Part shown: piece by piece, positions 19,758 to 59,273 of the stretch
Layout of the letters: every line of letters starts with the position of its first letter
Position numbering within the stretch: the stretch's first letter is position 1
Assembly (NCBI GenBank): GCA_964504365.1
Contig: CAZDDW010000003.1
Span: 8,031-72,030 of the forward strand
DNA: 64,000 nucleotides
Source: an uncultured Gammaproteobacteria bacterium
Lineage (GTDB): Bacteria; Patescibacteriota; Patescibacteriia; UBA9934; CAZDDW01
Direction: 5' to 3'
Notes under the pieces: model-generated
Database searches by the model: none
What the model saw: only the letters and a program-made list of their open reading frames with translations
What the model was told of the DNA's origin: nothing
Program-made: the position numbers and the translations under genes

Positions 19758-20945
19758 TTAATTGATAACTTTGGTTACAACTCCAGCTCCTACAGTTCGT
19801 CCACCTTCACGGATAGCAAAGCGCTGTTTTTCCTCAAGAGCAATCGGCTGAATCAACTTAACTGTAACATTAACCTCATCTCCAGGCATAACCATTTCTA
19901 CTCCGTCTGGCAAAGTAACTTCACCGGTAACATCAGAGGTTCGTGTGAAAAACTGTGGCTTGTATCCTTTGAAGAATGGCTTGTGTCGTCCACCCTCTTC
20001 TTTGGTCAAAGCATATACCTGAGCTTCAAACTCTGTGTGTGGAGTAACTGAACCTGGTTTAGCCAAAACCTGTCCGCGCTCAACCTCGTCTTTCTTAGTA
20101 CCACGCAGCAAAATTCCAGCATTATCACCAGCCTGTCCCTGATCAAGAGTTTTGTTAAACATCTCAACACCAGTAACAGTTGTTTTTGTAGTCTCCTTCA
20201 AACCAACCATTTCTACTTCTTCACTAACGTTTACAATACCACGCTCAATACGACCAGTAACCACAGTTCCTCGTCCCTCAATTGAGAAAACGTCTTCGAT
20301 AGGCATCAGGAATGGCTGATCAGTAGCACGTTCTGGCTCTGGAACATTTTCATCAAGAGCTGCTAGAAGATCTTTAATTGACTTTGTGGCTTCTTCATCA
20401 TCTGGATTCTCAAGAGCTTTCAAAGCAGAACCACGAATAATTGGAGTCTCATCACCTGGGAACTCATATTTCTTAAGCAAATCTCGGATCTCCTCCTCAA
20501 CAAGGTCAACCAATTCAGGATCATCAACCTGGTCAACTTTATTCATATAAACAACAATGGCAGGTACACCAACCTGACGAGCAAGCAAAATGTGCTCACG
20601 AGTCTGTGGCATAGGACCATCAGCAGCAGATACTACCAAAATAGCACCGTCCATCTGTGCAGCTCCAGTGATCATGTTCTTCACATAATCAGCGTGCCCT
20701 GGACAGTCAACGTGCGCGTAGTGGCGCTTTTCAGTTTCATATTCAACGTGAGCAGTAGCAATAGTAATTCCACGCTCTCGCTCCTCTGGTGCTTTGTCAA
20801 TCTGGTCAAAAGCTTTTGCTTGACCCTGACCCATATTAGCAGCAACCTGAGTAATAGCCGCAGTTAAAGTTGTTTTACCGTGGTCAACGTGACCAATAGT
20901 ACCAACGTTTACGTGCGGTTTTGATCGATCAAATGTTTCGGCCAT
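19758..20945 (-). CDS. tuf: elongation factor Tu
   Basis: [18 protein letters not shown] and NKVD motifs across the 395 aa protein. Confidence 0.95.
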
Positions 20946-21542: not shown

Positions 21543-21734
21543 GGCCGGCCACTCCTCTTGTCGTCAGAAGCAAAGAGCCGAAGGGTTTTGAATTGTGGAA
21601 CGATCGGAGGCCGGTGTCCTTACTAATTTTCAATTTTCATTCAATAACCAATGACCATTGTGACATTGAAAATTCAATGTAAATTCTAAATTGAAAATTG
21701 TAAATTTATTATCTGAGGCTCCCTGTGGCCGGCC
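21543..21734. mobile_element. MITE-like element copy 1 (about 190 bp, terminal inverted repeats GGCCGGCCAC...GTGGCCGGCC)
   Basis: The left 75 bp (GGCCGGCCACTCCTCTTGTCGTCAGAAGCAAAGAGCCGAAGGGTTTTGAATTGTGGAACGATCGGAGGCCGG) and right end (CTGAGGCTCCCTGTGGCCGGCC) are near-identical to the ends of a second copy at 39009..39218. The termini are inverted repeats and the interior is AT-rich. Confidence 0.5.
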
Positions 21735-21740
21735 AAAAGA

Positions 21741-21770
21741 AAAGGCCCCGCCGCAGTCAAGCGACGGGGT
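21741..21770 (-). terminator. terminator of the 21798..23015 gene
   Basis: ccccgccgc-agtcaa-gcgacgggg hairpin followed by TTTTCTTTT on the minus strand. Confidence 0.5.
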
Positions 21771-21797
21771 CGTGTTGAACGATGGAGCCAGTTCGTT

Positions 21798-23015
21798 CTA
21801 CTGGGGAGTCTGTACCTGAGCCACGGGTTCGGGCGGCGTGTTGAGCGCGGCCAGCTGTCCGGCGACCATGGTCTGGTAACTCGCCGTGTACTTCAGCGTA
21901 CGCACCGTGCGCAGATCCGTGGCCACTCGCGCGGTCATGCCGCGGACCTCGTCGGCCTCCATACCGGACCACTGGGCAGCCAGAGTCAGCCAGACCCGGG
22001 TGTTGACCACCCAGTCCTCGTACTGCTGGACCGTGCCACCGAGAGCCACGATGTCCTCGTAGCGGCGCATGTAGAATCCGTCATACCCGGATCCGGTCGT
22101 GGTCTCGGCATCGATCTTGCGCCGCAGCTCGACCGGGTCCACGAACGAACCGGACCAGTAGCCGCTGATGTAGTCGTGCGCGTTGTTGGTCAGATGCTCG
22201 GGCAGCATCGGCTTGACCGTTTCGTAGTCCTGGCTGAGGATCAGCCAGGAACCGACGTTGCTCAGCACGTCCTCGTCGAGCACGGCCTGGCGTGCGGCCA
22301 GGATGAGCTCCTCGCAGGGACGATCGACATCGCCGTCGACCTCGCAGATCTCACCGTTGATCAGGCCGTGGTAGGAGATCGTGTCCCCGAGACCACCGAG
22401 AACCCAGGCACCAACGAAGGTGCGTGCGTTGACCGGAACCGGGAAGGTCTCGGCCAGGCGGGTGATCAGCTCGGGCTGACCGTCGGTGTTGACGACCAGT
22501 GCCTGCTCCTCACGCATCAGCTGCATGGCATTCAGACCCTCGGGCAAGGCCGGGAATCCGCCGGTATCGAGGGCGGCCGTGAAGGCACGCAGGGTGTCGA
22601 ACGGCTTCTTCTTCTCGTCGAAGCTCTTCTGCTGCTCGGCATTGAACTTGTCGGCCAACGCCTCCAGGCTCGCCGGCGTGGCTGCCAGCTCCGCCTCGAC
22701 CTTGGTCAGATCGGATTCGAGGGTGGCGATCTTGGCCTTCAGCGCGGCCATATTCTCGCGGTGCTCCCGCTCCTCGTCGGTCTCGCCGATCGGGGGCATG
22801 CGCTGCTCCCCAGACGAATCGTCGGCGACTGCATTGGTCTCGTCCCCGTCCGCAGTCGGATCCGCGGGCACGGTCTCCTCGGCTGCCTCGGCCTCGTCGT
22901 TTCCGAAAGCCCAGCGCAAGGCCGGCTTGAAACCGATCACGATGACGAACAGCACAACGCCGATACCGACGAACCAGGGCCAGCGGCGGGAACTCTTGGT
23001 GGTGGGATCTCCCAT
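21798..23015 (-). CDS. GC-rich hypothetical type II membrane protein: short N-terminal tail, one transmembrane helix, acidic linker, coiled coil, and a ~270 aa C-terminal domain
   Basis: Start at MGDPTTKSS with ribosome-binding site gaggagag; transmembrane segment WPWFVGIGVVLFVIVIGF; coiled coil ENMAALKAKIATLESDLTKVEAELAA. Far more GC-rich than the flanking tuf and fusA genes. Has its own TTGACA, 17 nt, TATTAT promoter and its own terminator. Confidence 0.5.
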   Translation of the reverse strand: MGDPTTKSSRRWPWFVGIGVVLFVIVIGFKPALRWAFGNDEAEAAEETVPADPTADGDETNAVADDSSGEQRMPPIGETDEEREHRENMAALKAKIATLESDLTKVEAELAATPASLEALADKFNAEQQKSFDEKKKPFDTLRAFTAALDTGGFPALPEGLNAMQLMREEQALVVNTDGQPELITRLAETFPVPVNARTFVGAWVLGGLGDTISYHGLINGEICEVDGDVDRPCEELILAARQAVLDEDVLSNVGSWLILSQDYETVKPMLPEHLTNNAHDYISGYWSGSFVDPVELRRKIDAETTTGSGYDGFYMRRYEDIVALGGTVQQYEDWVVNTRVWLTLAAQWSGMEADEVRGMTARVATDLRTVRTLKYTASYQTMVAGQLAALNTPPEPVAQVQTPQ

Positions 23016-23130
23016 GATTTCTCTCCTCTTCTCGATTGAGATGAACGTTGTTGAAGCGACCCTCCATAGGCCGCGCTTGGGTTGATCTCGCGCTTGACTG
23101 TCCACCAAATCGGACAGTTAGCAACGCCGA

Positions 23131-23159
23131 ATAATAACACGTTTAAGCTTATCTGTCAA
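23131..23159 (-). promoter_or_regulatory. consensus sigma70 promoter of the 21798..23015 gene
   Basis: The minus strand reads TTGACA gataagcttaaacgtgt TATTAT, with AT-rich UP-like sequence (aagcttatttaagc) upstream. Confidence 0.5.
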
Positions 23160-23187
23160 CCCCAACAGGCTTAAATAAGCTAAAAAG

Positions 23188-23215
23188 AAAAACCCGTTGC
23201 AAGCAACGGGCAGGG
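23188..23215 (-). terminator. terminator of the 23235..23920 gene
   Basis: cccgttgc-aag-caacggg hairpin followed by TTTTTCTTTTT on the minus strand. Confidence 0.5.
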
Positions 23216-23234
23216 CCTAGCCCCTAGAGTCGTT

Positions 23235-23920
23235 CTACTGTGCTTCGGGCCACTTCTCGGGCAGCTCGGCCAGCATGCGATCGATGTCTTCCCGATAGGC
23301 CTCCGTATACAGGAGACCCTCCGGCGGATTGACCAGAGTGGCTTGAGCAGCCTTGAGCGAGGTCTCGGCAATTGACCGGCTGGTACAGCGGAAGGTCTGA
23401 ACTCCATCCCAGTACCGGGCCGTCGCGTGCTCGGGTGTTCCTTCTTCGAAGCACCCGTACAGAGCAATCCAGAGATGGAGGCTCTTGCATCCGTCTGGAT
23501 GATTGGCAAAGACCTCGTTGCCGAGCGCGTTGATCTCATCCTCATCAAGGAAGCTCAACGCTTCGCAACGAGCTGCTTCCCGCTCTTCGGCCTGCTCTGA
23601 CATGTTCTGCACGATCTCAGCCTTGAGACGCTCGTTCTCAGCCTTGAACTCGTCCAGCTCTTCCTGGAACGGATTGACCTCAGGCTCTTCAGGAACCGGA
23701 TCCATAGGTACGGCATTGGCAGCCTGCCCAGAATCACTATTCAGGGGCAGAAGACCAAAACAATCCCAACCGTTCCGGATATCCAAGTACCCCATTCCAA
23801 TGATCACCAGAAGAAAGACCAGGACCACCAAGACCCATAACCACCATAAACTCCTGCGCGAACCAGCCGCCCCAGAACCACTGGCGTCGTGTACCTTCTT
23901 TGTTTTATCGTCGGACATGA
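23235..23920 (-). CDS. GC-rich hypothetical type II membrane protein with the same architecture as its neighbour (transmembrane helix, Pro/Glu linker, coiled coil, ~110 aa Cys-containing C-terminal domain)
   Basis: Start at MSDDKTKK with ribosome-binding site gaaagg; transmembrane segment LWWLWVLVVLVFLLVIIGMGY; coiled coil EELDEFKAENERLKAEIVQNMSEQAEE; own promoter and terminator. Confidence 0.5.
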
Positions 23921-24087: not shown

Positions 24088-26172
24088 TTACTCTTTCTTC
24101 CCTCGCTTTTCAATAATCGCATCAGATACATTGCGTGGAACATCCTCATAGTGATCAAATTCCATTGAATAGCTAGCTCGTCCCTGAGTAATCGAACGCA
24201 ATTCAGTAGCATAACCAAACATCTCAGCCAACGGCACAAACGCTTCAACCACTTTCATGTTTCCACGATCACGCATTTCCTGAATCTTGGCTCGCTTAGA
24301 ATTCAAATCACCAACAACTGTTCCCATAAAATCTTCCGGTGTCACCACCTCAACTTTCATCACAGGCTCTTGCAAAGTAATTCCAGCTGCCTTGGCTGCG
24401 GCTTGGAAAGCCATAGAACCAGAAATCTTAAACGCAGCCTCAGAAGAGTCAACTTCGTGATAAGAACCATCATAAACAGTACATTTAATATCTAGCACTG
24501 GATATCCAGCCAACACACCACGCTCCATCGCCTCTTTAACACCCTTGTTAATCGGTTGGATATATTCCTTTGGAATCACACCACCTTTAATCTCATCAGT
24601 AAATTCATAACCACCACCAGCCTCAAGAGGCTCAATTCGCAACCAACAGTGACCGTACTGACCACGACCACCAGACTGACGAACAAATTTCCCCTCAGCT
24701 TCAGCCAACTTTTTGATCGACTCTTTGTAAGCCACCTGCGGAGCACCAACATTGGCCTCTACTTTAAACTCGCGCTTCATTCTATCAACAATAATATCTA
24801 AGTGCAGTTCTCCCATTCCAGAAATAATTGTTTGCAAAGTTTCATCATCTGTACGCACTTTGAAAGTTGGGTCCTCTTCAGCTAACTTAGCTAAAGCAAC
24901 TCCCATCTTTTCCTGGTCAGGCTTTGTCTTTGGTTCAATAGCAACAGAAATCACAGGTTCTGGGAATGTAATATTTTCCAAAACCACTGGATTATTTTCA
25001 TCACACAATGTTTGTCCGGTAGTCGTCCCTTTCAAACCAACTACAGCCGCAATGTCACCAGCATAAATCTCATCAATCTCTTCACGGTGATTAGCGTGCA
25101 TACGCAACAGTCGTCCGATGCGTTCTTTCTTTCCAGTTGATGCATTCAACACATAAGAACCTGACTTCAACACACCAGAGTAAACGCGGATAAAAGCTAA
25201 CTTACCAACAAACGGATCAGTAGCAATCTTGAATGCTAATGCAGCAAACGGCTCCTCATCAGAAGCTGGACGTGGAATAACTTTTTCTTCATCGTCTGGA
25301 TCAGTTCCTTCAACAGGTGGAACCTCCAATGGACTTGGTAGGTAATCAACAATCGCATCTAGCAATGGCTGCACACCCTTGTTCTTCAAGGCAGTACCAC
25401 AAAGCACAGGGATAATCTCTAGTTTCAAAACAGCCTCGTGCAAAATCTTTTTAATATCTTCCAAAGGGATCTCTTCACCAGCCAAATATTTTTCCATGGC
25501 CGCCTCATCATTTTCCACAATCGCTTCCATTAATTTCCCGCGCCACTCATCAGCTAACTCTTTCATGTCTTCAGGAATATCAGTCTCTTCCATTTCTTGC
25601 CCAAGATCATCTTTATAAATAGTTGCCTTCATGGTTAACAAATCAACAATCCCAGTAAACTTATCTTCAGCACCGATTGGCAGCTGCAAAGGATATGCTT
25701 TCTTGGTCAACCGCTCATGAATCGAATTCAGATCGTAAAAGAAATCTGCACCGGTTCGATCTAGTTTGTTAATAAAACAAATTCGCGGCACATTGTACTT
25801 GTCAGCCTGGTGCCAAACAGTCTCTGACTGTGGCTCAACACCAGCAACACCGTCAAAGATAACAGCACCACCGTCAAGCACACGCAATGAACGCTCCACC
25901 TCAACGGTAAAGTCTACGTGCCCTGGGGTATCAATAATATTAACTCGGTGATCTTTCCAGAAACAAGTTGTTGCAGCGGAAGTAATAGTAATACCGCGCT
26001 CTTGCTCTTGCTCCATCCAGTCCATCTCAGCTTCACCCTCATGCACCTCACCGATCTTATGCTTTTTACCAGTATAAAACAGAACTCGCTCAGTAACCGT
26101 AGTCTTACCAGCGTCAATATGAGCAATGATTCCAATGTTACGAGTTTTCTCAAGTGAATATTCTCTTGGCAT
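24088..26172 (-). CDS. fusA: elongation factor G
   Basis: 694 aa with [17 protein letters not shown] and NKLDR motifs. Confidence 0.95.
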
Positions 26173-30144: not shown

Positions 30145-30260
30145 AACATGACTAGCTTACCAATATTTACAGGCCAAGACAACAACTTGACGGATAAGAC
30201 AAATAGGAGTACTCTGGCCTTCCTGGTTCCTTCAACCCCGCGACACAAAGGAGATAACAT

Positions 30261-30983
30261 ATGTCGCTGGTATTCCAACCTCTTCCCAACGCGCTACTGG
30301 CCCTGGCCAAGCTGCCCCATGGCAGGATCATCGACGACGATGACAACACCTACACCATCATGCACGAAGGTGAGGCCGAAGCGGCCCTGGTCGCACTGAG
30401 CGAAGCTGGGTGCGACGAAGACATGGTCGAACTCATGCGCACCGAGCTGATCGCGCTCAACTTCCCAGCGGATCTAGGCGAGCTGATCCTGGCCCTGACC
30501 CAGGTCAACCTGGGCGATGACTTCGACCCGGGCGACCTGAGCTTCGAAATCTGCGAACCCGACGAGGACATCAAGGTGCCGCATGGCCAGATCATTCAGG
30601 ACGATCACCTCGCCGGCGCCTCGGCAATCACCAGCATGGAGCACGCGCTCTCCATCATGATGGTCGGTGCCAGGGATGGGTTCATTACCGCCGAACAGGG
30701 AATCTTCCTGCTCAAGCAAATGGCTGCGGCCGACCTGATGCTCACCCAGAAGCAAGTGCTGGCCCACCACGGCTACACCCGAGACACTGACGGCACCTAC
30801 CGCTCCGAGGCCCGGGACGGATCGACCAAAGTCGAAACGGCTACCCGGATCCTTCACATGGGACCGCTGACGATCCTCGTTTCCAGAATCGAGACCACCG
30901 AGATCGACGGCGAGGACGAGCCGCGCGACACGGTCGAGGATGACGAGGGCGGTGACAGCCCGACCGAGGGCGGCGGCTGGTAG
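30261..30983 (+). CDS. GC-rich hypothetical acidic protein
   Basis: Ribosome-binding site aaaggaga 6 nt before the ATG; promoter TTGACG, 17 nt, TACTCT upstream. High GC; no recognisable motif. Confidence 0.45.
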   Translation: MSLVFQPLPNALLALAKLPHGRIIDDDDNTYTIMHEGEAEAALVALSEAGCDEDMVELMRTELIALNFPADLGELILALTQVNLGDDFDPGDLSFEICEPDEDIKVPHGQIIQDDHLAGASAITSMEHALSIMMVGARDGFITAEQGIFLLKQMAAADLMLTQKQVLAHHGYTRDTDGTYRSEARDGSTKVETATRILHMGPLTILVSRIETTEIDGEDEPRDTVEDDEGGDSPTEGGGW

Positions 30984-31061
30984 CCCAGACCAGCACAGAA
31001 CACAAAACTGACCCACACAGGATCAGTCGACTCTATACCACGGACGCAAGTTCGTGGTTCT

Positions 31062-31802
31062 TTATTTCTCCACCCGAACCACTTGATCAATAAACAAATT
31101 CAAAATCCGGTTTGCTTCTGGCGTTTCTTTAGATTCATTAATCACTTTATCCAATTCTTCGCTTTGTTCAAAATATTTCTTTTTATAAAAACTCATCCGT
31201 ACTACCACGTCTTTATGTTCCAACTCTGGATGAAACTGAATTGCATATATCGGCCGATCCTCAAAAACAAATACTTCGCAACAATTCTTTTTATGATTAG
31301 TAATAATATCTCTTGTCCCTGGTGGAGGTGCAATAACACTGTGGCTGTGTCCAATCTGAACAAAAAAACTTTCTGGCAAGTACCGAAAAATTGGATCGTC
31401 TTTTCCTTCTTCAGTGCAACGCATTTCAATCGTACCAATTTCCCGTAATGCAGGATCCTGAACAACCTCTCCACCAAAAGCTAAGGCAACTACTTCGTGT
31501 CCGTAACCGATAGCCAACATAGGAATTTTTTTATCATGAATTTCTTTAATTAATGCAATCAATTCTGGCAGCCTATCCATTTGTCCTTCTCCAGAAAAAT
31601 AATGTCCAGTCCCCGCCAAAATCACAGCATCCATATCATTAAGCAACGAAGGGTCTAACTGATCACGAAAAATATCAACTCGGAAAAAATTCTCTTGTGG
31701 CACATTTATTAAACGATCAAAACACAAAAACTCGTGTTCTTTCATTTCGTCTTCACGAACTTGCAGAAAAAGTATTTTTAAATTATTTCTGTTCTTGATC
31801 AT
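31062..31802 (-). CDS. class I glutamine amidotransferase-like protein whose nucleophile Cys is replaced (GYG), likely a catalytically dead paralogue
   Basis: GATase1 layout with LAIGYGHEVVA where G-C-G is expected; QFHPELEH retained; low GC like the host backbone. Confidence 0.55.
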   Translation of the reverse strand: MIKNRNNLKILFLQVREDEMKEHEFLCFDRLINVPQENFFRVDIFRDQLDPSLLNDMDAVILAGTGHYFSGEGQMDRLPELIALIKEIHDKKIPMLAIGYGHEVVALAFGGEVVQDPALREIGTIEMRCTEEGKDDPIFRYLPESFFVQIGHSHSVIAPPPGTRDIITNHKKNCCEVFVFEDRPIYAIQFHPELEHKDVVVRMSFYKKKYFEQSEELDKVINESKETPEANRILNLFIDQVVRVEK

Positions 31803-40403: not shown

Positions 40404-43310
40404 TTAGATAACAAAGTTAATCAATCGTCCTGGGACGTAAACTGTTTTCTTGATTTTATTGTCTGCAACAAACTTCTGAACATTCTCTTCTGCCAAAGCC
40501 AGCTTCTCTGCCTCCTTCTGGTCTAGATCTGGAGCTACCATTATTGTACCACGTAACTTTCCATTAACCTGAATCGGCAACTCAATCGTTTCGTCCTTAG
40601 CCAACTTTGGATCAAACTCTGGCCAAGCCTCAAACGTGATCGACTTCTTGTTTCCTAACTGCTGCCAGATCTCCTCAGTCACATGTGGAGCAAACGGTGC
40701 AAACACGGTCAGAAACTTAGCAAGGCTTTCTTTTGTAATCGAACCAGTGTCTTGTATCTTGTTAACCAGAATCATCATCTGCGATACGGCTGTGTTATAT
40801 TTCATTTCTTCGATATCAGAAGTTACCTTCTTGATTGTCTTGTGCAGCTCGCGAGTCACATCTTCGTCTTCTTTCTTTGCAACCATGTCCTGCAAATTCC
40901 AAACCTTTTCCAGGAACCTACGCACACCAACTACACCAGTCGTACTCCAAGGAATTGCTTCGCTAAAAGGACCCATGAACATTAAATACACTCGCAGCGT
41001 ATCAGCCCCATACTGCTCAACAATCTCATCCGGATTAATCACATTGCCAAACGACTTAGACATCTTGCGCCCGTCCTCAGCCAGAATCATCCCATGTGAA
41101 GTGCGCTTTTGGTATGGTTCGCTAGTTGGCACATGCCCTTGGTCGTGCAGGAACTTATTCCAGAAACGAGAGTAGAGCAAGTGCAGCGTGGTGTGCTCCA
41201 TTCCGCCGTTGTACCAATCAACTGGCATCCAATTCTTCAACTTATCTTCAGCCGCAAACACCTTATCGTTCTTTGGATCGATATAGCGCAGGAAATACCA
41301 ACTAGACCCAGCCCAGTTTGGCATCACATCAGTCTCACGCCTGGCAGGACCACCACATTCAGGACAAGTCGTGTTCACCCAATCGTCAACATTAGCCAAC
41401 GGTGATTCACCAGACTCAGTTGGTTCGAACTTCTTTACCTCAGGTAATTCAACTGGAAGCTGTTCATCTTTAACCGGCACCCAACCACCGTTTCGTTTCG
41501 AACCTTCATTATCCCAATCCGACACCGGCTTCTTATAACACTCTTCACAATGAACCAAAGGAATCGGCTCACCCCAATATCGTTGTCGAGAAAAAACCCA
41601 ATCACGTAACTTGTAATTAACTGCGGCCTTGCCCTTACCTTCTTTTTCCAACCACTGATTCATCTTCTTAATCGCCTCTGGCGTGTGCAGACCATCAAGA
41701 AAATCCGAATTAATACATTCGCCTTCACCAACAAAAGCCTGACCTTGATCTGAGTCAAGCTCCGACTTCCAACACCGCAGTTCAGAACAAGCCATACTCT
41801 CTTCTGTAATCTCACAACGATCAACCCAGCGTATTTCATGGGCTGCTTTTTCCTTATCCTCAACATCCACTTGCTTTTCACTTTTCAGATCAAACACGAT
41901 CGCGGTACTGTAAGCAACGCGATTCTCTTTTTTATGAGCAGCATAATATTCTGAACGAATCTCCTGACTCATAAACTTTCGAAATTCCAAATCAACATAT
42001 CCTGTTTCTTCTTCAATCTCACGTTTAGCAGCATCGATCAAATCCTCTCCATCATCAACCCCACCTAGAACAAAAGTTGTCCAAGGGTGTTTTTTCCAAT
42101 CAAGACACAAATATTTGTCAGTCTTTGGATTATGGACAATAGCCATTATCATTTTTCGAGTCACAATCTTCTTGCCTTTTTGTGGTGGATTATTTTTATC
42201 ACATACGCAAGGTGCTACCACTTGTTGAATCAGTAGACCAAACTTTATAGCAAACTCAAAGTCACGCTCATCATGCGCAGGAACAGCCATGATCGCACCA
42301 GTACCGTAGCCCATCAAAACATAATCAGCGATCCAGATTGGAATCTTTTCATTGTTCACTGGATTAGTCGCATACGCGCCAGTAAACACTCCTGTTTTTT
42401 CTTTTGATACATCACCGCGCTCAATATCCGTTTTCGCGGCAGCCTCTTTCTTATACTTGGTCACGGCCTTCATCTGCTCCTTGGTCGTGATCTGCTCTAC
42501 TAACTCATGCTCAGGCGCCAAGACCATATATGTAGCTCCAAACAAAGTATCCGGACGAGTTGTAAAGACTTTCAAATACGGTGTCACTCCGCCGGACTTT
42601 TGATCAACCTCAAACTCAACAATCGCACCTTCAGATCGGCCGATCCAGTTAGCCTGCTGCGCTTTGATCTTGTCCAAGAAATCAACAGTATCCAAATCAT
42701 CTAACAACTTGTCGGCATAGCGAGTGATCTCCAACATCCATTGCTCACGATCCCGCTTCTCAACTTCCCCACCACAACGCTCACACTTTCCATCAACCAC
42801 TTCCTCATTAGCCAAACCAATCTTGCAAGACAAACACCAATTAATCGGCATCTTGGATTTGTAAGCCAAACCAGCCTTGAACAACTGCAAGAAAATCCAT
42901 TGTGTCCATTTGTAATAATTCGGATCTGTCGTGTCCACCTCACGCGACCAATCAAAAGAAAAACCAATAGACTTCAGCTGACGCTTAAAGGTTGCGATGT
43001 TCTGCTGAGTCGCCTCACGCGGATGAGTCCCAGTCTTGATCGCGTAGTTCTCGGTCGGCAAACCAAAAGCGTCCCAACCAATTGGATACAAAACATTATG
43101 CCCCTCAGCTCGTCGCTTACGCGCCACAATATCCAGCGCGGTGTAAGATCGCGGATGTCCAACGTGCAAACCGGCTCCTGACGGATAAGGAAACTCAACT
43201 AAACAAAAATACTTCGGCTTGTCCGAATTATCCTGCGCTTCGTATAATTTTTTCTCCTCCCAAAACTTTTGCCATTTAGGCTCGATTTCTAAGTGGTTGT
43301 ACCGATCCAT
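40404..43310 (-). CDS. leuS: leucyl-tRNA synthetase carrying an inserted Nudix hydrolase domain
   Basis: HVGH, TRPDT editing motif and KMSKS are present. About 165 extra residues lie between AHDERDFEFA and NSDFLDG, containing a perfect Nudix box GGVDDGEDLIDAAKREIEEETGY. Confidence 0.9.
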   Translation of the reverse strand: MDRYNHLEIEPKWQKFWEEKKLYEAQDNSDKPKYFCLVEFPYPSGAGLHVGHPRSYTALDIVARKRRAEGHNVLYPIGWDAFGLPTENYAIKTGTHPREATQQNIATFKRQLKSIGFSFDWSREVDTTDPNYYKWTQWIFLQLFKAGLAYKSKMPINWCLSCKIGLANEEVVDGKCERCGGEVEKRDREQWMLEITRYADKLLDDLDTVDFLDKIKAQQANWIGRSEGAIVEFEVDQKSGGVTPYLKVFTTRPDTLFGATYMVLAPEHELVEQITTKEQMKAVTKYKKEAAAKTDIERGDVSKEKTGVFTGAYATNPVNNEKIPIWIADYVLMGYGTGAIMAVPAHDERDFEFAIKFGLLIQQVVAPCVCDKNNPPQKGKKIVTRKMIMAIVHNPKTDKYLCLDWKKHPWTTFVLGGVDDGEDLIDAAKREIEEETGYVDLEFRKFMSQEIRSEYYAAHKKENRVAYSTAIVFDLKSEKQVDVEDKEKAAHEIRWVDRCEITEESMACSELRCWKSELDSDQGQAFVGEGECINSDFLDGLHTPEAIKKMNQWLEKEGKGKAAVNYKLRDWVFSRQRYWGEPIPLVHCEECYKKPVSDWDNEGSKRNGGWVPVKDEQLPVELPEVKKFEPTESGESPLANVDDWVNTTCPECGGPARRETDVMPNWAGSSWYFLRYIDPKNDKVFAAEDKLKNWMPVDWYNGGMEHTTLHLLYSRFWNKFLHDQGHVPTSEPYQKRTSHGMILAEDGRKMSKSFGNVINPDEIVEQYGADTLRVYLMFMGPFSEAIPWSTTGVVGVRRFLEKVWNLQDMVAKKEDEDVTRELHKTIKKVTSDIEEMKYNTAVSQMMILVNKIQDTGSITKESLAKFLTVFAPFAPHVTEEIWQQLGNKKSITFEAWPEFDPKLAKDETIELPIQVNGKLRGTIMVAPDLDQKEAEKLALAEENVQKFVADNKIKKTVYVPGRLINFVI
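41715..42210 (-). other. Nudix (MutT-like) domain embedded in leuS, about residues 368..532
   Basis: Nudix box G-x5-E-x7-REUxEExGU matched exactly, with flanking strands of the Nudix fold (MAIVHN, AIVFDL, HEIRWV). Confidence 0.6.
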
Positions 43311-43317
43311 AAGTTTT

Positions 43318-43357
43318 CTGGTTATCTGGTTATCTGGTTATCTGGTTATCTGGTTAA
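43318..43357. repeat. tandem octamer repeat (GTTATCTG, 4.5 copies) followed by three AGACAAC repeats, upstream of leuS
   Basis: ctggttatctggttatctggttatctggttatctggtta, then tagacaactagataaccagacaacaagacaac. Confidence 0.7.
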
Positions 43358-43448
43358 AACTAGACAACTAGATAACCAGACAACAAGACAACTCATACAG
43401 CCAAAATCGTATCATATTTAAGGCTCCAAGGCAATTTACTGCTTTACC

Positions 43449-43478
43449 TTGACAAACCCATCTTTCCATGCTTAAATA
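43449..43478 (+). promoter_or_regulatory. sigma70-like promoter (TTGACA, 18 nt, TAAATA)
   Basis: Lies upstream of the 43605 gene. Confidence 0.4.
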
Positions 43479-43604
43479 CCTTCTCATGCCACGCGCTGGG
43501 CAAGGCTCTCACAGGGTACTACGACCTCACCGGTCCTGGGCTCTACCAAATGGGACTTGATCCCTGATCCTTGTACTAGCGTCTACCACGAAAGGAGATG
43601 TGCC

Positions 43605-44900
43605 ATGAGTCGTGACGAAAAAGAAACCCCTCTTTCCAAATTCGTATCCACCCTGGGACGGCTATTGCCGAAGTTCGAACGCCGAGAGCTTCCGCTCTCA
43701 CGTTTGGACAACGCGCGCATGGCTCTGGATGGAGCAGCCGTCCCGCTTCCGAACAGCGCTGGACCGCAGCTACCGACCAAACTCTACGGCGGCGTCAACG
43801 AGGTCGCTCTGGCTGCTGATGGCACCAGATTCGTGACCGGAAAGCGACACGGGAGAAAAGGTGAAAAGGTCGTTCTCTTGAGGGCGATGCCGGGCAGCGA
43901 TCAGTTCGAAGAGGTCGACTCGGCACCGGTCATCGAGCGACTCTTCGTACCAGAAGGATCGAACAAGCCAGCCTACATGCGCGCCATCGAACGTGGTGTC
44001 AGCCATGCCGAGTGGGTCTGGAACGGCCTGACTCTGCCCGGCGACCAGAACGACATGGACACTCGCCCGCTGTTCTGGACCAATGATCAAGGGATCAACG
44101 GGGCCGTAATCACCAAGGGAAAGTTGTACGTGTGGCATTCCGGCCAGCGGCACATCGTTGGTCTTCCTCACCGATACAGAGAATACAAACCAACTCACAT
44201 CCAGCTCATCAGTAAAAGCCTGTTCCAGATCTGGGGTCTTCCAGCCCACCAGGATGTGGTTGTCTGGCGCGACAAGGTGGGTCCTGCGGGAATGTACATT
44301 GACCGTGAATCAGTAGTCAGGGGCGTCAACGCCGAGCCCTGGTTCTTGGCCCGAGCCAACGCTGCCCATGGCCCTGTCCACGTCTGCAACATGGACGGGC
44401 TAGAGCGGATGCTCGAACACAAGCCCGAGGGCATCTGGACCGCTCCTGGGAAGATCTTCGTCCTGGAAGAGACCCTGACTGGGCCCGACGGTCCGAGCTG
44501 TCGCGTCCATGAGGTCATCTCAGGCTGGAGTTCAGACTTGCTCGACCAGCAGGTCGAGCAAGTCTGGGCACTGAGTGGTCACTCCAGTGACATCGCCCTT
44601 CACAACCGAAACTCGGGAGTGCTGCGCTATCTGAGTGAAAGTAGCAGCGTCATCGGACAAGCACCGGCAATGTCACGCGCCAGTGTCCGACAGATGGGCA
44701 ACCTGTTCGTCTATCAGATCGGCGATACCTTCGCCTTCCTGAAAGACACCAACATCGAATTCTCAGCCCACAGAATTCCGCGACAAGAACTGGGGCTCGA
44801 ACATCTGGTGCTCATGAACGACGGGACGATCCAGGGCATAGTCAAATCCGGTACGAGTGTGGTGACGTATACCTTCTTCGATCCAAGCAAGCGCGCGTAA
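43605..44900 (+). CDS. GC-rich hypothetical protein (431 aa)
   Basis: Start at MSRDEKETPL with ribosome-binding site aaaggag; hairpin terminator cccccg-aacgact-cggggg plus T-run at 44905..44940; no recognisable motif. Confidence 0.45.
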   Translation: MSRDEKETPLSKFVSTLGRLLPKFERRELPLSRLDNARMALDGAAVPLPNSAGPQLPTKLYGGVNEVALAADGTRFVTGKRHGRKGEKVVLLRAMPGSDQFEEVDSAPVIERLFVPEGSNKPAYMRAIERGVSHAEWVWNGLTLPGDQNDMDTRPLFWTNDQGINGAVITKGKLYVWHSGQRHIVGLPHRYREYKPTHIQLISKSLFQIWGLPAHQDVVVWRDKVGPAGMYIDRESVVRGVNAEPWFLARANAAHGPVHVCNMDGLERMLEHKPEGIWTAPGKIFVLEETLTGPDGPSCRVHEVISGWSSDLLDQQVEQVWALSGHSSDIALHNRNSGVLRYLSESSSVIGQAPAMSRASVRQMGNLFVYQIGDTFAFLKDTNIEFSAHRIPRQELGLEHLVLMNDGTIQGIVKSGTSVVTYTFFDPSKRA

Positions 44901-45008
44901 CGGATCATCTCCCCCCCCGAACGACTCGGGGGATTTTTTATTGAAACATAAAAGGACACCCGCAAGGAGTGCCCCACGTACGGGTCAACGGCCGTTGACC
45001 CCTACATT

Positions 45009-45347
45009 TTAACTTTCTTCCCCAAACTGTAACTGGTGTCCAGCTTCCATCCAGCCGTGCAAGCCGCTGTCAAACAAGTCGACCTGCTGGTAACCAAGCT
45101 CTTGCAGTTTCTTAATCGCGTCAAAGCATTCTTGCTTGCCATGGAAGTCAGCATAAACAATTACCGGAACTTCCTTGTCTAGCAAAACCTTAGCCGCGGT
45201 CTCGACAAAATTAGTATCGTACGGCAGATTGACCGCACTGGCAATGTGATTGTGTTCGTAATGTTCAGCATTACGAATATCAACAAGCATAAAAGTCTCA
45301 TCAGCATCCATCTTAGCTTTTAGCTCGTCAGCAGTAAGTGTAAGCAT
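45009..45347 (-). CDS. rhodanese-like domain protein, probably inactive (Asp in place of the catalytic Cys)
   Basis: 112 aa with the rhodanese fold pattern; the active-site loop reads VIVYADFHGKQ where Cys is expected. Confidence 0.65.
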   Translation of the reverse strand: MLTLTADELKAKMDADETFMLVDIRNAEHYEHNHIASAVNLPYDTNFVETAAKVLLDKEVPVIVYADFHGKQECFDAIKKLQELGYQQVDLFDSGLHGWMEAGHQLQFGEES

Positions 45348-45364
45348 ACATTTACACTATAACA

Positions 45365-47963: not shown

Positions 47964-49994
47964 TTAGCGTTTTGAAACCCCTTCAATTTCAAGAACCTTT
48001 TTCTCTGCCTTTTCTGAATATAGTTCAAACACATCACCAGGCTCAGCTTTTACTTTTCCTTTATATTGAATACCACACTCCTGGTTCTTCAAAACCTCGC
48101 TGGTATCTTGTTTGTTGGCCTGGAGCTTAAGCATGATCGCCTCACCAATTATCTCATCTCCGCGCATCAGGCGCAACTTAGAATCTTTCAAAGCTGTACC
48201 TTCAATCACCTTAGCACCAATAATCCAACCGTTATCAGTCTTTTTAAAATTCATCAGCACTTCAACTTTACCAGTCTCTGTAACTACGATTTCCTCTGGC
48301 ATTAATTTTTCAAGACGTTCAACCATGTCTTCGAAAATCTTGTAAATAACCGAATTCTCCATGATTTCAACATTTTTATCACGAGCCAACTCCGCAGCCG
48401 TACCAGTTGGTTTAACACTAAAGGCGTAGATCACGGCCTTACTTGCCTCAGCTGCCAAAACCTCAGAGTCTGTCACATCTCCAAGACCCTTGTCCAAAAT
48501 CTTCACCTCAACGTGCGGATTTTTTTGCAGCTTCTCAATCATCCCAAGCAGTGCCTCCAAAGAACCAAGCACATCGGCTTTAATGATCATGGTCAAACAC
48601 GGCTTGGTCTGTTCCTCATCTTCAACAACAGGGGCAATCTTAGTCGCAGTAACCTCATCAATTGCAGCAGATTTAACTGTCTTGAACTTTGTTTTTTTCA
48701 AATCTTTTATATTTTCTGGAACTTCAATCACATCACCCACAGTTGGTGCAGCCTTGAAGCCAAGAACACGAACCGGGGTCGATGGTAATGCCTCTTTAAC
48801 ATTTTTATTCTGCCAATCTTGCATTGCCTTAACTTTTCCATAAAGCATGCCGCGCACACCAAGCGGATCACCAACGCGGAGTGTTCCAGTCTGAACCAAT
48901 GCAGTAACCACAGGCCCAGCACCTGGATCAATTTTAGAATCAATCACTGTTCCAATTGCTGTGCGTTCTGGATTGGCCACAATCTTTTCTTTTTCCATGT
49001 CAGCCACCAAAATCAACATGTCTAAAATATCGTCGATACCAATCTGTTTCTTTGCCGAAATTGGAACCATGATCGTATCCCCTCCCCAATCTTCTGGATT
49101 CAAACCTTTTTCTGCTAGCTGGCCTTTTACCATGTCAATATTCTGTTCCGCTTTGTCGATCTTGTTCAATGCAACAATAAAAGGCATGCCTGATGCCTTG
49201 ATAATATCAATTGCCTCGCGAGTCTGCGGCTGAATTCCATCGTCCACAGCAACAACCAAAATTGCAATATCAGCCACCTTGGCTCCACGCGAACGCATGA
49301 CCGTAAAAGCTTCATGTCCAGGAGTATCAATAAATGTCAGCTGTCGGTTCTTGCGCTCAACCTGATAAGCACCGATGTGCTGAGTAATTCCACCAGCCTC
49401 TTCGTCAACCACGTTAGTTGTTCTAATAGCATCAAGCAATTTGGTCTTTCCATGATCAACGTGTCCCATGACAACAACAACCGGAGGTCGCTCAACTGCA
49501 TCTTTTTTATCTTCCCCTTCCAAAATCTCACCAACTCGTTCTAGATCTGCCTCCTGTTCTTCATCTGGACTTTCCTCCTCAGCCTTAGCTTCAAACCCAA
49601 GGTCAGAAGCAATAATGGCTGCGGTTTCAAAATCGATCGTATCATTCAACGAGGCCAAGATTCCGGCCTTCATCAACTCTTGCATTACCTTGGCAACCGG
49701 CAATTCCAAACGTCCGGCAAATTCACGCACAGCAATTGTTGGCGGCAAAGCAACTGGCTTTTTTGGAGCCTGATCTTCTGCTCCAGCTCCGGCTGCTTGC
49801 TGCTGCTGGGCCTCACGTTTCATCTTCAGTCTCTGTCGTCGACGATACTCACCCCAAGCATTCATGATCTGATTAGCAATCCGATCATCAACCTTAATCG
49901 CTTTCTTTCCAATACTAAAACCGAGCTCAGGCAACTTCTCCCTAAGCTCTTCTGGGTTAACATTTAATCGTCGTGCTAGTTCAGTTACATTCAT
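47964..49994 (-). CDS. infB: translation initiation factor IF-2
   Basis: [16 protein letters not shown] and NKID motifs; C-terminal beta-barrels. Confidence 0.9.
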   Translation of the reverse strand: MNVTELARRLNVNPEELREKLPELGFSIGKKAIKVDDRIANQIMNAWGEYRRRQRLKMKREAQQQQAAGAGAEDQAPKKPVALPPTIAVREFAGRLELPVAKVMQELMKAGILASLNDTIDFETAAIIASDLGFEAKAEEESPDEEQEADLERVGEILEGEDKKDAVERPPVVVVMGHVDHGKTKLLDAIRTTNVVDEEAGGITQHIGAYQVERKNRQLTFIDTPGHEAFTVMRSRGAKVADIAILVVAVDDGIQPQTREAIDIIKASGMPFIVALNKIDKAEQNIDMVKGQLAEKGLNPEDWGGDTIMVPISAKKQIGIDDILDMLILVADMEKEKIVANPERTAIGTVIDSKIDPGAGPVVTALVQTGTLRVGDPLGVRGMLYGKVKAMQDWQNKNVKEALPSTPVRVLGFKAAPTVGDVIEVPENIKDLKKTKFKTVKSAAIDEVTATKIAPVVEDEEQTKPCLTMIIKADVLGSLEALLGMIEKLQKNPHVEVKILDKGLGDVTDSEVLAAEASKAVIYAFSVKPTGTAAELARDKNVEIMENSVIYKIFEDMVERLEKLMPEEIVVTETGKVEVLMNFKKTDNGWIIGAKVIEGTALKDSKLRLMRGDEIIGEAIMLKLQANKQDTSEVLKNQECGIQYKGKVKAEPGDVFELYSEKAEKKVLEIEGVSKR

Positions 49995-50024
49995 AGTGCG
50001 CCTATTCTACTAAATTCCGCTTAA

Positions 50025-50440
50025 AAAGTAAAGACCGCCGGGTTAATCGGCGGTAAGGACGCAGAACGTCCTAGAGATTCGGAAGTGGCCCAGAACAGGA
50101 ACCGTTGCAGTTCCTGCCTGGGACCACCCGACCACGTCGCATAGCCGTCGCACGACTTTTCATCGTCGGGTATTACCCGGCCAGCTGGCTCTTGGGAAAC
50201 GGTGTTCCGGCGCAAGCAGTGCCCGACCCTTTGGTAGTATTGCGCCACCATCGGTCGAGATTATTCGCGTTTTGTGGTTTCCCAGTCTGCCCCCTCGTAG
50301 CGAATAGCGTGCGTGGGCGTAAGAGACGTGGGTTTTGAAAGAGGATGGTGCGGCCCGGGGTGGTCGGGGTCGAGATCCGGACCGCACCAAACGGGACAGG
50401 CAACAGGAGGTGGGGCACGTTTTAGCCTCCTATCGCCGGG
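50025..50440 (-). ncRNA. GC-rich ~400-nt non-coding block, candidate structured RNA of unassigned class (RNase P RNA, tmRNA or an infB leader considered)
   Basis: No consistent reading frame (five short overlapping ORFs across frames), GC much higher than the flanks, many local helices (for example GGTGCGG...CCGCACC and CCCAGAACAGGAAC..GTTCCTGCCTGGG), and a minus-strand intrinsic terminator (accgccg-attaac-ccggcggt plus CTTTACTTTTT) ending 30 nt before the infB ATG. Confidence 0.35.
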
Positions 50441-50499
50441 CAAAGATTAAGATATCATGATTGTTGATTTACGTCAACAATGTGCTAGGATATGAGCAT

Positions 50500-51156
50500 A
50501 TGAATAACTTTTTGTTAATAGATAAACCAGCTGGGATGACTTCGCATGATGTTATTGATCAGGTACGTCAGATCACTGGCGAGCGCAGGGTTGGGCATGC
50601 TGGCACACTGGATCCATTTGCTACCGGACTCTTAATCGTAGCTGTAGGACGAGACTCGACCAAGAAGCTGAGTGAATATGTTGGTTTAGACAAAGAGTAC
50701 GAAGCAGTTTTTGTTTTGGGAATGCGCTCTGAGACTGATGATCCTGAAGGACCAGTCGCACCCAGCGAAACCGACCGAGATATCACCCGCGAAGAAATCG
50801 AAACAGCGATGCAGAAATTCATCGGTCAGATCGAACAAGTTCCACCGAAATATGCTGCGATCAAAGTTGGCGGTCGAAAGCTTTACCAAGCCGCACGTGC
50901 AGGTCAGGAGATCGAACGCAAACCCCGCTCAGTCAAGATCGACGAGTTTGAATTGCTCGATACTTCAGAAGACAATCACAAATTAACTGTACGTATCAAA
51001 TGCGGATCCGGAACATACATCCGCGCCCTTGCACGAGACCTTGGTGACGAACTAGGCGTTGGCGGATACGTTGAGCAACTTCGCAGAACCAAAATCGGAG
51101 AATACAAAATCGAAAACGCAAAAACTTTAGAGCAAATAAAAAATGGGTCCAATTAG
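50500..51156 (+). CDS. truB: tRNA pseudouridine(55) synthase
   Basis: LLIDKPAGMTSHDV and GHAGTLDPFATGLL. Confidence 0.85.
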   Translation: MNNFLLIDKPAGMTSHDVIDQVRQITGERRVGHAGTLDPFATGLLIVAVGRDSTKKLSEYVGLDKEYEAVFVLGMRSETDDPEGPVAPSETDRDITREEIETAMQKFIGQIEQVPPKYAAIKVGGRKLYQAARAGQEIERKPRSVKIDEFELLDTSEDNHKLTVRIKCGSGTYIRALARDLGDELGVGGYVEQLRRTKIGEYKIENAKTLEQIKNGSN

Positions 51157-58150: not shown

Positions 58151-58380
58151 CGACCGATGTGTCTGTGTCGGGCAATCCGACAAACAAGGCAGATGAGATC
58201 AGGAATGTCATGAGAAAGAACAGGAGCAGGACCAGACAAAGAACAACAGCCCAAGCAGACTTTCTGGTCACAGCAAGTGCAGTAAACAATCCGGACAGGA
58301 AAGAGCTAGCCGCAATCATTAGAAACAAGATCATCATTTCCTCCAAAACCAACCTTACACCAACCCGCTAGAAAAGAAAA

Positions 58381-58405
58381 ATCCCTCGTTGCCGAGGGGC
58401 GATGA
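58381..58405 (-). terminator. terminator of the 58434 gene
   Basis: ccctcg-ttgc-cgaggg hairpin followed by ATTTTTCTTTT on the minus strand. Confidence 0.5.
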
Positions 58406-58433
58406 GGGACAGGTCCAATCAAGGGCGATCGGA

Positions 58434-58640
58434 CTAGATGGGCTTGTACTGCCAGCCCTGCCGTTCGCAGAACTCGGCCACCGAGACAGAGCCCTCGCGG
58501 AGTCGTTGGTGCAGTTCGTCGGCCTCGTCAGCCGGGATCACGGGCGGGCGAGTCGGATTGCCCTGGTCGTCGAAGAAACGGATCGGATGTGTGCGTGCGT
58601 TGGATGCTGGACCGGCTTCCCAGTCGGGTTTGGCCATACT
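58434..58640 (-). CDS. GC-rich small hypothetical protein (about 68 aa)
   Basis: ATG preceded by ribosome-binding site aggagg with 5 nt spacing; sequence MAKPDWEAGPASNARTHPIRFFDDQGNPTRPPV...; terminator downstream. Confidence 0.4.
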   Translation of the reverse strand, partial: SMAKPDWEAGPASNARTHPIRFFDDQGNPTRPPVIPADEADELHQRLREGSVSVAEFCERQGWQYKPI

Positions 58641-58717
58641 CACCTCCTAATTAGACCATATCATTATTTTACCAAAAATAAAAATCCGACCAGGTGGTCG
58701 GAATGAGTACGTGCGGT

Positions 58718-59149
58718 CTAGGCGCTTGCAGGTACGGCAGCGGGTGGGACCAGGCGGAAGATGCGTGCAGCGAAGATCGAGCAACTGTGAGCAAAGACCC
58801 TTGCTACACCACTCTTCTGGCTGACCGCGACCAGTGGGCTACCTGCCCTATAGCTGATCCAGGGTCCGGGCTTCATCATCTTCGCCGGAATCTCGTGCTC
58901 GGCACCTTCGGCGTAGGCGGGCAGGAGCTGATCATCTTGCTCGGCCATCCTGCGTACGAGCACGGTTCGCCAGGAACGATCGTCAGACCACACCTGGAGC
59001 TGCTCACCGATCGTTCCCTCTCGCGGGAATTCGATGCTGTCCGTCTGGACTGGAGCTTCTCCGGTTCGATCCTCGAAATATCGTCTGTCGTTTTCGCGTT
59101 CTCCCGTGTCTCCCATGAGAACGAACACTCCGACCGGCTGACTACTCAT
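58718..59149 (-). CDS. GC-rich hypothetical protein (about 144 aa)
   Basis: Start at MSSQPVGVFVLMGDTGE with ribosome-binding site aaggagg. Confidence 0.45.
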   Translation of the reverse strand: MSSQPVGVFVLMGDTGERENDRRYFEDRTGEAPVQTDSIEFPREGTIGEQLQVWSDDRSWRTVLVRRMAEQDDQLLPAYAEGAEHEIPAKMMKPGPWISYRAGSPLVAVSQKSGVARVFAHSCSIFAARIFRLVPPAAVPASA

Positions 59150-59229
59150 GAGGCCTCCTTGCTGTCGTAGCTCACGACTAAAAGATCTTGCCACAAAAAC
59201 CTGATACTGTCAATTCCTGGTATTTCAGG

Positions 59230-59258
59230 TTGACATTTATCAAGAAATATAGTATATT
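59230..59258 (+). promoter_or_regulatory. sigma70 promoter upstream of tRNA-Lys (TTGACA, 17 nt, TATATT)
   Basis: TTGACA tttatcaagaaatatag TATATT lies about 15 nt before the tRNA 5' end. Confidence 0.5.
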
Positions 59259-59273
59259 TGCGACCACAAGTAT

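Follow-up and report, generated by a model that had tools for sequence, protein, structure and literature searches.

Among the orphan structured small RNAs (sRNAs) with a promoter and an intrinsic terminator of their own is Ms1, a mycobacterial sRNA of ~300 nt. Large bacterial non-coding RNAs (ncRNAs) for which a function is lacking or has only recently been proposed include OLE, ROOL, GOLLD, raiA and HEARO, all of which are in Rfam. In Escherichia coli, the first element of metY-rimP-nusA-infB is a tRNA, metY, that is co-transcribed with the operon, and in the Firmicutes the sRNAs RsaE and RoxS have C-rich loops that pair with Shine-Dalgarno (SD) sequences. Bacteria of the candidate phyla radiation (CPR) have genomes of about 1 Mb in which non-coding DNA is scarce, and their regulatory RNAs are, to our knowledge, almost wholly uncharacterised. 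The present analysis concerns a GC-rich block at 50023..50442 on the minus strand of a 64,000-nt stretch of contig CAZDDW010000003.1 (hereafter the window), located between infB (minus strand) and the divergent truB (plus strand). It is probable, at roughly 60%, that this block is a stand-alone gene for a structured, GC-rich sRNA of ~420 nt transcribed from the minus strand. The RNA family is previously unclassified and clade-restricted, and of a familiar general kind.

The signals that delimit the predicted transcription unit, and those of the gene that follows it, are these:

50472..50477, minus strand: -35 hexamer TTGACG of the RNA promoter, from the promoter scan
50449..50457, minus strand: extended -10 element TGaTATCTT of the RNA promoter (TG 50457-50456, hexamer 50454-50449), from the promoter scan
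50023..50442, minus strand: predicted ~420-nt non-coding RNA, with its 5′ end placed from the promoter and its 3′ end from the terminator U-tract
50023..50054, minus strand: intrinsic terminator, with stem-loop 50054..50034 and U-tract CUUUACUUUUU at 50033..50023
50004..50032, minus strand: separate infB promoter, with -35 TTTACT (50032-50027), a 17-nt spacer and -10 TAGAAT (50009-50004), then AGGCGCACT and ATG

Read in the direction of infB, the layout is thus promoter, ~420 nt of RNA, terminator, infB promoter, 9 nt and the infB ATG. Transcription would start at a sigma-70-type promoter with an extended -10 element (TTGACG-17-TGaTATCTT, 50477..50449), with a predicted start site at about 50442, and would stop at the terminator (50054..50023), the U-tract of which would also provide the -35 for a separate, nearly leaderless infB promoter. 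The terminator reads ACCGCCG-ATTAACC-CGGCGGT on the minus strand (50054..50034), then CTTTACTTTTT up to 50023, and its final T lies 29 nt before the infB ATG, as the first-pass annotation had proposed in placing a terminator ~30 nt ahead of the infB start. The infB -35 (TTTACT) sits within the U-tract, the same bases serving both signals. A predicted promoter and Rho-independent terminator of its own enclose the non-coding stretch and are kept in relatives, as is found for independent sRNA genes.

The composition of the block is unusual and its predicted structure more so. The GC content of 50031-50430 is 0.60 against a window mean of 0.458 (standard deviation 0.056 in 400-nt windows), an excess of about 2.6 standard deviations, and that of the predicted RNA (50023..50442) is 0.595, with a minimum free energy (MFE) of -183 kcal/mol. 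By GC content six other islands of the window rank above the block; the earlier description of it as more GC-rich than its flanks is correct, though other islands are equally rich. The minus-strand fold has an MFE of -185 kcal/mol and a z-score of -6.99, a value that none of 100 dinucleotide shuffles attained, and separate dinucleotide shuffles gave z-scores of -5.0 to -6.0 with or without the terminator. The plus strand scored only -2.7 and -1.6 in two shuffle runs, and the other GC-rich islands, which contain long open reading frames (ORFs) lacking a Pfam match, have fold z-scores of about 0 to -1.5. It is therefore excess structure, not GC content, that distinguishes the block, and the annotated abundance of local helices goes beyond chance on the minus strand (z -5 to -7). 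A genome-wide class of structured GC islands was considered and rejected, since the remaining islands are without excess folding and appear as long ORFs without Pfam matches.

The following elements of the minus-strand RNA come from the predicted fold:

50399..50437, minus strand: hairpin H1, a 12-bp stem (GGCGAUAGGAGG/CCUCCUGUUGCC) with a 15-nt loop (CUAAAACGUGCCCCA)
50346..50389, minus strand: hairpin H2, GGUGCGGUCCGG...CCGGGCCGCACC, with 13-nt arms that are 92% complementary, followed by single-stranded AUCCUCUUUCAAAACC
50132..50331, minus strand: central multi-branched domain closed by CACGUCUC.../...GCGACGUG, with branch details from the MFE prediction only
50079..50131, minus strand: long 3′ hairpin, invariant at its base (CGG-GUGG ... 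CCAC-UU-CCG) and covarying in the upper stem
50056..50072, minus strand: small hairpin GGACGU-UCU-GCGUCC, separating the 3′ hairpin from the terminator

By the names of homologues of the encoded IF2, the organism belongs to Candidatus Uhrbacteria (Patescibacteria/CPR). The truB/infB loci of relatives, with IF2 identity to the window, are as follows:

L089/L090, 96%: RNA gene partial, the contig ending within it
L001, 86%: RNA gene full length, 648 nt
L094, 82%: RNA gene partial, the contig ending within it
L082/L083, 79%: RNA gene interrupted by an ISL3 insertion sequence (IS)
L095, 79%: RNA gene absent (82-nt gap)
L084, 76%: RNA gene full length, 368 nt
L085, 73%: RNA gene full length, 536 nt
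L091/L092, 73%: RNA gene full length, 297 nt
L086, 72%: RNA gene full length, 283 nt
L087, 71%: RNA gene absent
L088, 61%: RNA gene absent, with a response-regulator gene in its place

Six full-length copies were compared (window, L001, L084, L085, L086 and L091), all of which occupy the truB/infB position. In the IF2 tree the RNA-bearing lineages cover the entire clade above ~70% identity, and the RNA is missing from L002 and L003, the only remote relatives among 80 mostly unrelated bacteria obtained by a pattern scan of metagenomes for IF2. The family would thus be confined to one Candidatus Uhrbacteria clade, bounded roughly by IF2 identity of at least 70%, and the simplest history would be an ancestral RNA gene with two losses and one IS hit. 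The ISL3 element of L082 (1311-2765, also at the start of L083) encodes DDE_Tnp_ISL3, has inverted repeats of ~25 bp and lies in the 5′ part of the RNA gene; downstream of it the conserved 3′ hairpin and the terminator are intact. Five independent metagenomic contigs (L083, L089, L090, L093 and L094) end inside or beside the RNA gene, perhaps because variability among strains causes assemblies to break here.

The features that define the unit recur throughout the full-length copies. A promoter of the form TTGAC[AG], exactly 17 nt and TGnTAnnnT is present in six of six, and the overlap of the terminator U-tract with the infB -35 is likewise common to the six. Every orthologue has an intrinsic terminator, and L084 and L094 have two in tandem. 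Fold z-scores for the body of the RNA without its terminator range from -3.0 to -7.8 across the six copies, with the sense strand folding better than the antisense strand in four of them, and the GC content of the RNAs is 0.56-0.63 against 0.43-0.47 for the surrounding loci, that is, 10-18 points higher. At an IF2 identity of ~72%, unconstrained sites should have drifted to the genomic composition, and the persistence of high GC and strong folding therefore argues for selection. The promoter, the terminator, high GC, strong folding and single helices would accordingly be what is maintained within the clade, the helices by way of compensatory changes.

The evidence for such changes is clearest in the long 3′ hairpin (50131..50079), which aligns in the window, L094, L084 and L083. 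In this alignment of four sequences, from which the structure itself was derived, pairing extends to 92.3% of cells, and both sides have changed in 9 of 26 pairs; none of 500 shuffles equalled this, and slid controls were 39-58% paired. The helices of the hairpin are thus backed by compensatory substitutions beyond controls in the four orthologues. Two-sequence comparisons of the window with L094 or L001 revealed further compensatory changes and insertions or deletions (indels) at hairpin tips, and L086 and L091 differ mainly in loops, by compensatory changes and by insertions at hairpin tips. The core of the H1 loop (AACGUGCCCC) is identical in the window and L001, where the stem sequence differs yet pairs, and the central domain holds a 20-nt stretch (CCAAGAGCCAGCUGGCCGGG) that is identical in L094. 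At the position of the small hairpin (50056..50072), L094 has a different hairpin and L084 and L083 have none. By eye, hairpins resembling H2 (GGGUGCGG...CCGCACC, then UUCC and an A-rich segment) recur in L086, L091, L085 and L001, a similarity without statistical significance; when these GGGUGCGG...CCGCACC-UUCC hairpins were aligned with MAFFT, the quality and information content were too low for a model.

Set against this constancy of signals and folding is what appears to be a fast turnover of length, sequence and branch architecture, with loss or interruption of the gene in some lineages. The RNAs vary from 283 to 648 nt (2.3-fold) and differ in predicted branch architecture. Pairwise local alignments of the RNA bodies were not significant save for window-L084, L001-L084 and L086-L091. 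A covariance model of the 3′ hairpin (R1) recovered only four orthologous sites (E 1e-18 to 4e-22) and no paralogue in the window, and an inventory of k-mers and loops for recurrent motifs returned only A-rich linkers, plus C-rich loops in two members. Several of these results weigh against the reading as a stand-alone sRNA of one family. Copies from different subclades lack significant sequence similarity and R1 finds no match in L001, L085 or L086, so that the case for one family rests on synteny, promoter and terminator; the RNA promoter and terminator are themselves consensus matches only. The gene is absent from L095 and L087 and interrupted by the IS in L082/L083, which implies that the role of the RNA is dispensable. 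The comparison yielded no conserved seed, target or partner protein for the RNA, and pairing of C-rich loops with SD sites, considered as a mode of action, was dropped because SD motifs occur at 12 of 55 genes only.

The first-pass annotation had proposed a candidate structured RNA that might be RNase P RNA or transfer-messenger RNA (tmRNA). A structured non-coding element in the orientation of infB, with an intrinsic terminator, is what the locus holds; the proposed identities did not survive comparison with known families. Rfam 15 (4227 families) at gathering thresholds returned two tRNAs only for the whole window, a cmscan search at E<=10 on 49900-50600 gave no match, and the loci of five orthologues yielded no credible match on the RNA element, the weak matches being a spurious isrK on the strand opposite to the RNA copy of L085 and tRNA-related noise elsewhere. 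A cmscan comparison with Rfam, as the annotation had advised, therefore placed the element in no family. ARAGORN likewise reported two tRNAs and no tmRNA in the window. For RNase P RNA (RF00010/RF00011, with the P4 helix and the CR-I to CR-V core) there was no cmscan match in the window or the five orthologues, and a retained essential gene is difficult to reconcile with a locus that is without the RNA in L095 and L087, is IS-interrupted in L082 and has no core across subclades. For tmRNA, with its tRNA-like domain and tag-peptide frame, ARAGORN and Rfam were both empty. The 6S and signal recognition particle (SRP) RNAs also lack an Rfam match, and the folds at this locus are multi-hairpin or multi-branched with lengths of 283-648 nt, against the ~180-nt rod with a central bubble of 6S RNA. 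A very divergent member of one of these housekeeping families would suit the size and GC-richness of the block and the unusual character of CPR RNAs, and rnpB, ssrA, ffs and ssrS were not found in the 64-kb window, which is ~6% of a roughly 1-Mb genome. An element that is missing or IS-interrupted in close relatives and whose architecture varies by subclade is nonetheless a poor fit to an essential housekeeping RNA, and we regard this identity as very improbable. Equally improbable is a small protein or a decayed gene, for which the best candidate is an 81-codon ORF with a GTG start (50173..50418, minus strand) and an AGGAGG 7 nt upstream; this AGGAGG-N7-GUG lies in hairpin H1, the loop of which (AACGUGCCCC) is shared with L001. 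The corresponding ORF of L001 is only 21 codons by eye, no counterpart of the start or the frame exists in L084, L085 or L086, and the ORFs are not conserved among the orthologues. Since genes in the window are largely without SD motifs, the AGGAGG more probably forms one side of a helix. The block has ORFs of at most 81 aa on both strands, none with a Pfam match, and a six-frame pseudo-protein query against 5.8 billion protein clusters found nothing at E<=1e-3, which bears out the annotated lack of a coherent reading frame and speaks against the decayed protein-coding fragment that had been raised as an alternative.

The more serious competitors concern what a transcript from this block would do. 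The RNA might act in cis on infB, either as an attenuator leader with read-through, as the annotation had also suggested, or by transcriptional interference that occludes the infB -35. It is co-oriented with infB and immediately upstream of it in every orthologue, and since the terminator tail supplies the -35 bases of infB, some interference with infB is physically plausible. In two sequences only, those of the window and L094, RNAalifold moreover pairs the 3′ arm of the terminator with a conserved GCCAGCUGG, a pairing that could in principle be an anti-terminator. No antiterminator alternative conserved across the orthologues was seen, however, and the size range and fluid architecture of the RNAs are unlike known attenuators and riboswitches, with no leader family matching. 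A leader or riboswitch of infB would have no promoter between terminator and start codon, whereas a predicted proximal promoter of the form TTTACT/TTGACT-17-TAnnnT, then AG[GC]CGCAC and ATG, is matched by the regular expression, as a consensus, at 11 of the 12 loci long enough to include it; the twelfth, L094, has a divergent -35 (ATTACT) that was identified by eye, and L093 stops short of the infB promoter. The same complete and nearly leaderless promoter is present in L095, L087 and L088, which lack the block. A promoter of its own for infB and tandem terminators in two relatives, which argue for tight termination and not regulated read-through, favour a separate transcription unit over an attenuator, and MITE-like inserts (resembling miniature inverted-repeat transposable elements) between promoter and ATG are tolerated in L084, L089 and L094. 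An action in cis is thus unlikely, though it is the strongest of the alternatives. Less likely again is that the truB-infB gap is a hotspot for GC-rich hairpin DNA and the RNA a functionless transcribed filler, with unrelated inserts in each subclade. The lack of significant similarity between subclade groups, the large differences in length, the clean absence in L095 and L087, the mobile DNA at the locus (ISL3 in L082 and MITE-like palindromes in L084, L089/L090 and L094) and the contigs that break there would all be expected of such a hotspot. It does not readily account for a near-consensus promoter with identical spacing plus a terminator in all six copies, for helices maintained through compensatory substitutions, or for significant folding and a GC excess of 10-18 points that persist in six copies despite saturating divergence and imply selection at a genomic GC of ~46%. 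Nor does the block behave as a repeat of the REP (repetitive extragenic palindromic) or MITE type: self-BLAST against the 64-kb window, about 6% of the genome, gave matches of at most 19 nt, at chance level, so that the block is single copy there, R1 hits one site in the window, and BLAST of phage and plasmid collections was without a match. A pattern scan of viral contigs returned six matches in unrelated contexts, none with the hairpin, which by a rough estimate is about the chance number.

If the block is a stand-alone sRNA gene, the RNA may act in trans as a stable accessory RNA, either regulatory or as a protein-binding scaffold, in which helices and a few unpaired, often C-rich segments would matter more than exact sequence. 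Foldedness that is selected, helix-tip indels that are tolerated, few fixed motifs and dispensability fit such an accessory RNA better than a catalytic or housekeeping one. The ends of the transcript, the stability of the RNA and its action in trans are inferred, and the scaffold or regulator role is a guess. The strong terminator could also insulate the infB promoter from upstream transcription. In the RNAs of the window and L086 the unpaired regions contain 31-38% C but only 10-11% G, and five or six CCC/CCCC motifs are exposed; this C-richness is weaker in L001, L084 and L085. A loose SD-like motif precedes 12 of the 55 ORFs of the window. A more speculative and rather doubtful extension is that these RNAs are the first members of a new class of scaffold RNA in the streamlined Uhrbacteria, large (0.3-0.65 kb), fast-evolving, GC-rich and selected for strong folding and a few exposed motifs instead of sequence, which might sequester or organise a nearby-encoded protein of RNA processing or translation (truB, rny, ymdB, infB) or tune the nearly leaderless infB.

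An RNA of 0.3-0.65 kb with a strong promoter of its own, and with GC content and fold held against a lower genomic GC, is a candidate for RNA-based regulation in the CPR. The analysis also corrects a tempting mis-annotation, as the block is neither rnpB nor ssrA. Narrow distribution, dispensability and the lack of an identified target limit its importance for now. A literature search on structured RNAs of the CPR produced nothing relevant, and no paper was found that names both Uhrbacteria and ncRNA. There is also a hazard for annotation, in that gene callers sometimes extend truB across the RNA block (319 aa in L086, 247 aa in L085).

The genes on either side of the RNA are the following:

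47964..49994, minus strand: infB (IF2, 676 aa), with IF2_N, GTP_EFTU and IF-2 domains (Pfam), the downstream neighbour of the RNA
50500..51156, plus strand: truB, with its ATG at 50500 and a TruB_N match of 8.9e-49 (Pfam), the divergent upstream neighbour

In the wider neighbourhood, Pfam identifies trxA, trxB and gdh as the genes that follow infB; truB is followed by an unknown ORF, rny and ymdB. The annotation had remarked that infB lacks its usual nusA partner, and nusA indeed does not adjoin it. A putative truB promoter (TTGATT-16-TGcTAGGAT, 50464-50491, plus strand), read by eye and scoring under the threshold of the promoter scan, would overlap the RNA promoter back to back. Short tandem repeats lie between the truB start and the RNA promoter in two relatives, GTATAAA in four to five copies in L086 and AAATCATGA in three copies in L084. 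Across the window, upstream regions are A/T-rich, and in several genes the ATG is preceded by 8-10 GC-rich nt and, ahead of these, a -10-like TAnnnT; such an element stands a few bases before the ATG of infB (50004-49992), truB (50486-50502) and rny, and also upstream of 28518 and 56551. This layout suggests mRNAs that are leaderless or nearly so. The MITE-like palindromes between the infB promoter and ATG (L084:2815-3000, L089/L090:70-175 and L094:235-425) each turn the leaderless layout into a 5′ untranslated region of 130-190 nt; the element of L084 and L089/L090 is shared (GGATACGAACTACGAAAG...CTTTCGTAGTTCGTATCC), and that of L094 is different, with repeated GATATT motifs.

Elsewhere in the window, ~2 kb between tuf (19758..20945) and fusA (24088..26172) have a GC content of 0.61-0.67 (21700-23750), with long ORFs that overlap on the two strands (among them one of 436 aa at 21798..23108, minus strand), no Pfam match and fold z-scores of 0 to -1.5; this could be a GC-rich gene of unknown type, or else foreign DNA within an operon that is conserved in other respects. 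Next to tuf, a 136-aa ORF (21053-21463, minus strand) has a weak match to the PhdYeFM antitoxin family (E 3.6e-6, under the curated cut-off). Three further GC islands (30204-31080, 43478-45073 and 58348-59270; GC 0.56-0.60) contain long ORFs without a Pfam match, namely 240 aa at 30261..30983, 447 aa at 43557..44900 and 158 aa on both strands at ~58700..59190. These islands are mostly without excess folding, the exceptions being 43311-43700 and 44500-45364 (z -3 to -4.8). Directly upstream of leuS (40404..43310, minus strand), 43311-43400 holds a tandem 8-nt repeat (CCAGATAA, five copies) that ends 8 nt before the ATG, and an imperfect inverted copy just upstream of it forms a long hairpin with the repeat; the short tandem repeats of L086 and L084 near the RNA promoter are comparable. 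The leucyl-tRNA synthetase itself (40404-43310, minus strand) has a NUDIX domain (residues 389-501, E 1.8e-11) inserted after its editing domain.

The systems described at the outset each share part of this picture. Like metY in E. coli, the RNA of the window is encoded by a predicted stable-RNA gene directly upstream of the infB unit and co-oriented with it; it differs in that it is not a tRNA, a terminator precedes infB, infB has its own promoter, and nusA and rimP are not adjacent. A distant CPR-like relative, L003 (IF2 identity 55%), has directly upstream of infB a segment (1830-1905) that by eye looks like a tRNA gene and recalls the metY-infB arrangement. With RsaE and RoxS the RNAs of the window and L086 have C-rich, G-poor unpaired regions in common; the likeness ends with the weak C-richness of L001, L084 and L085 and with the scarcity of SD targets (12/55) in a window where several genes look leaderless. 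Ms1, the 6S-like RNAs and scaffold RNAs resemble it as independent intergenic units of several hundred nt that are strongly folded and have a GC content above their surroundings, and the Ms1-type orphan sRNAs share poor conservation of primary sequence and restriction to one clade. Unlike Ms1 and 6S-like RNAs, the Uhrbacteria RNA lacks the rod and central bubble, has no Rfam match of the 6S type and gives no sign of binding RNA polymerase, and unlike Ms1-type RNAs it differs by more than a factor of two in length and branching among close relatives and is dispensable in some lineages. In OLE, ROOL, GOLLD, raiA and HEARO a core is conserved across wide taxa and covariance models work, whereas the model of the best-conserved Uhrbacteria hairpin fails outside one subclade. 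What the Uhrbacteria RNA does have in common with these large RNAs is an unusual size (283-648 nt), a multi-helix structure, the absence of an adjacent dedicated protein gene, and a first appearance as a GC-rich structured intergenic region.

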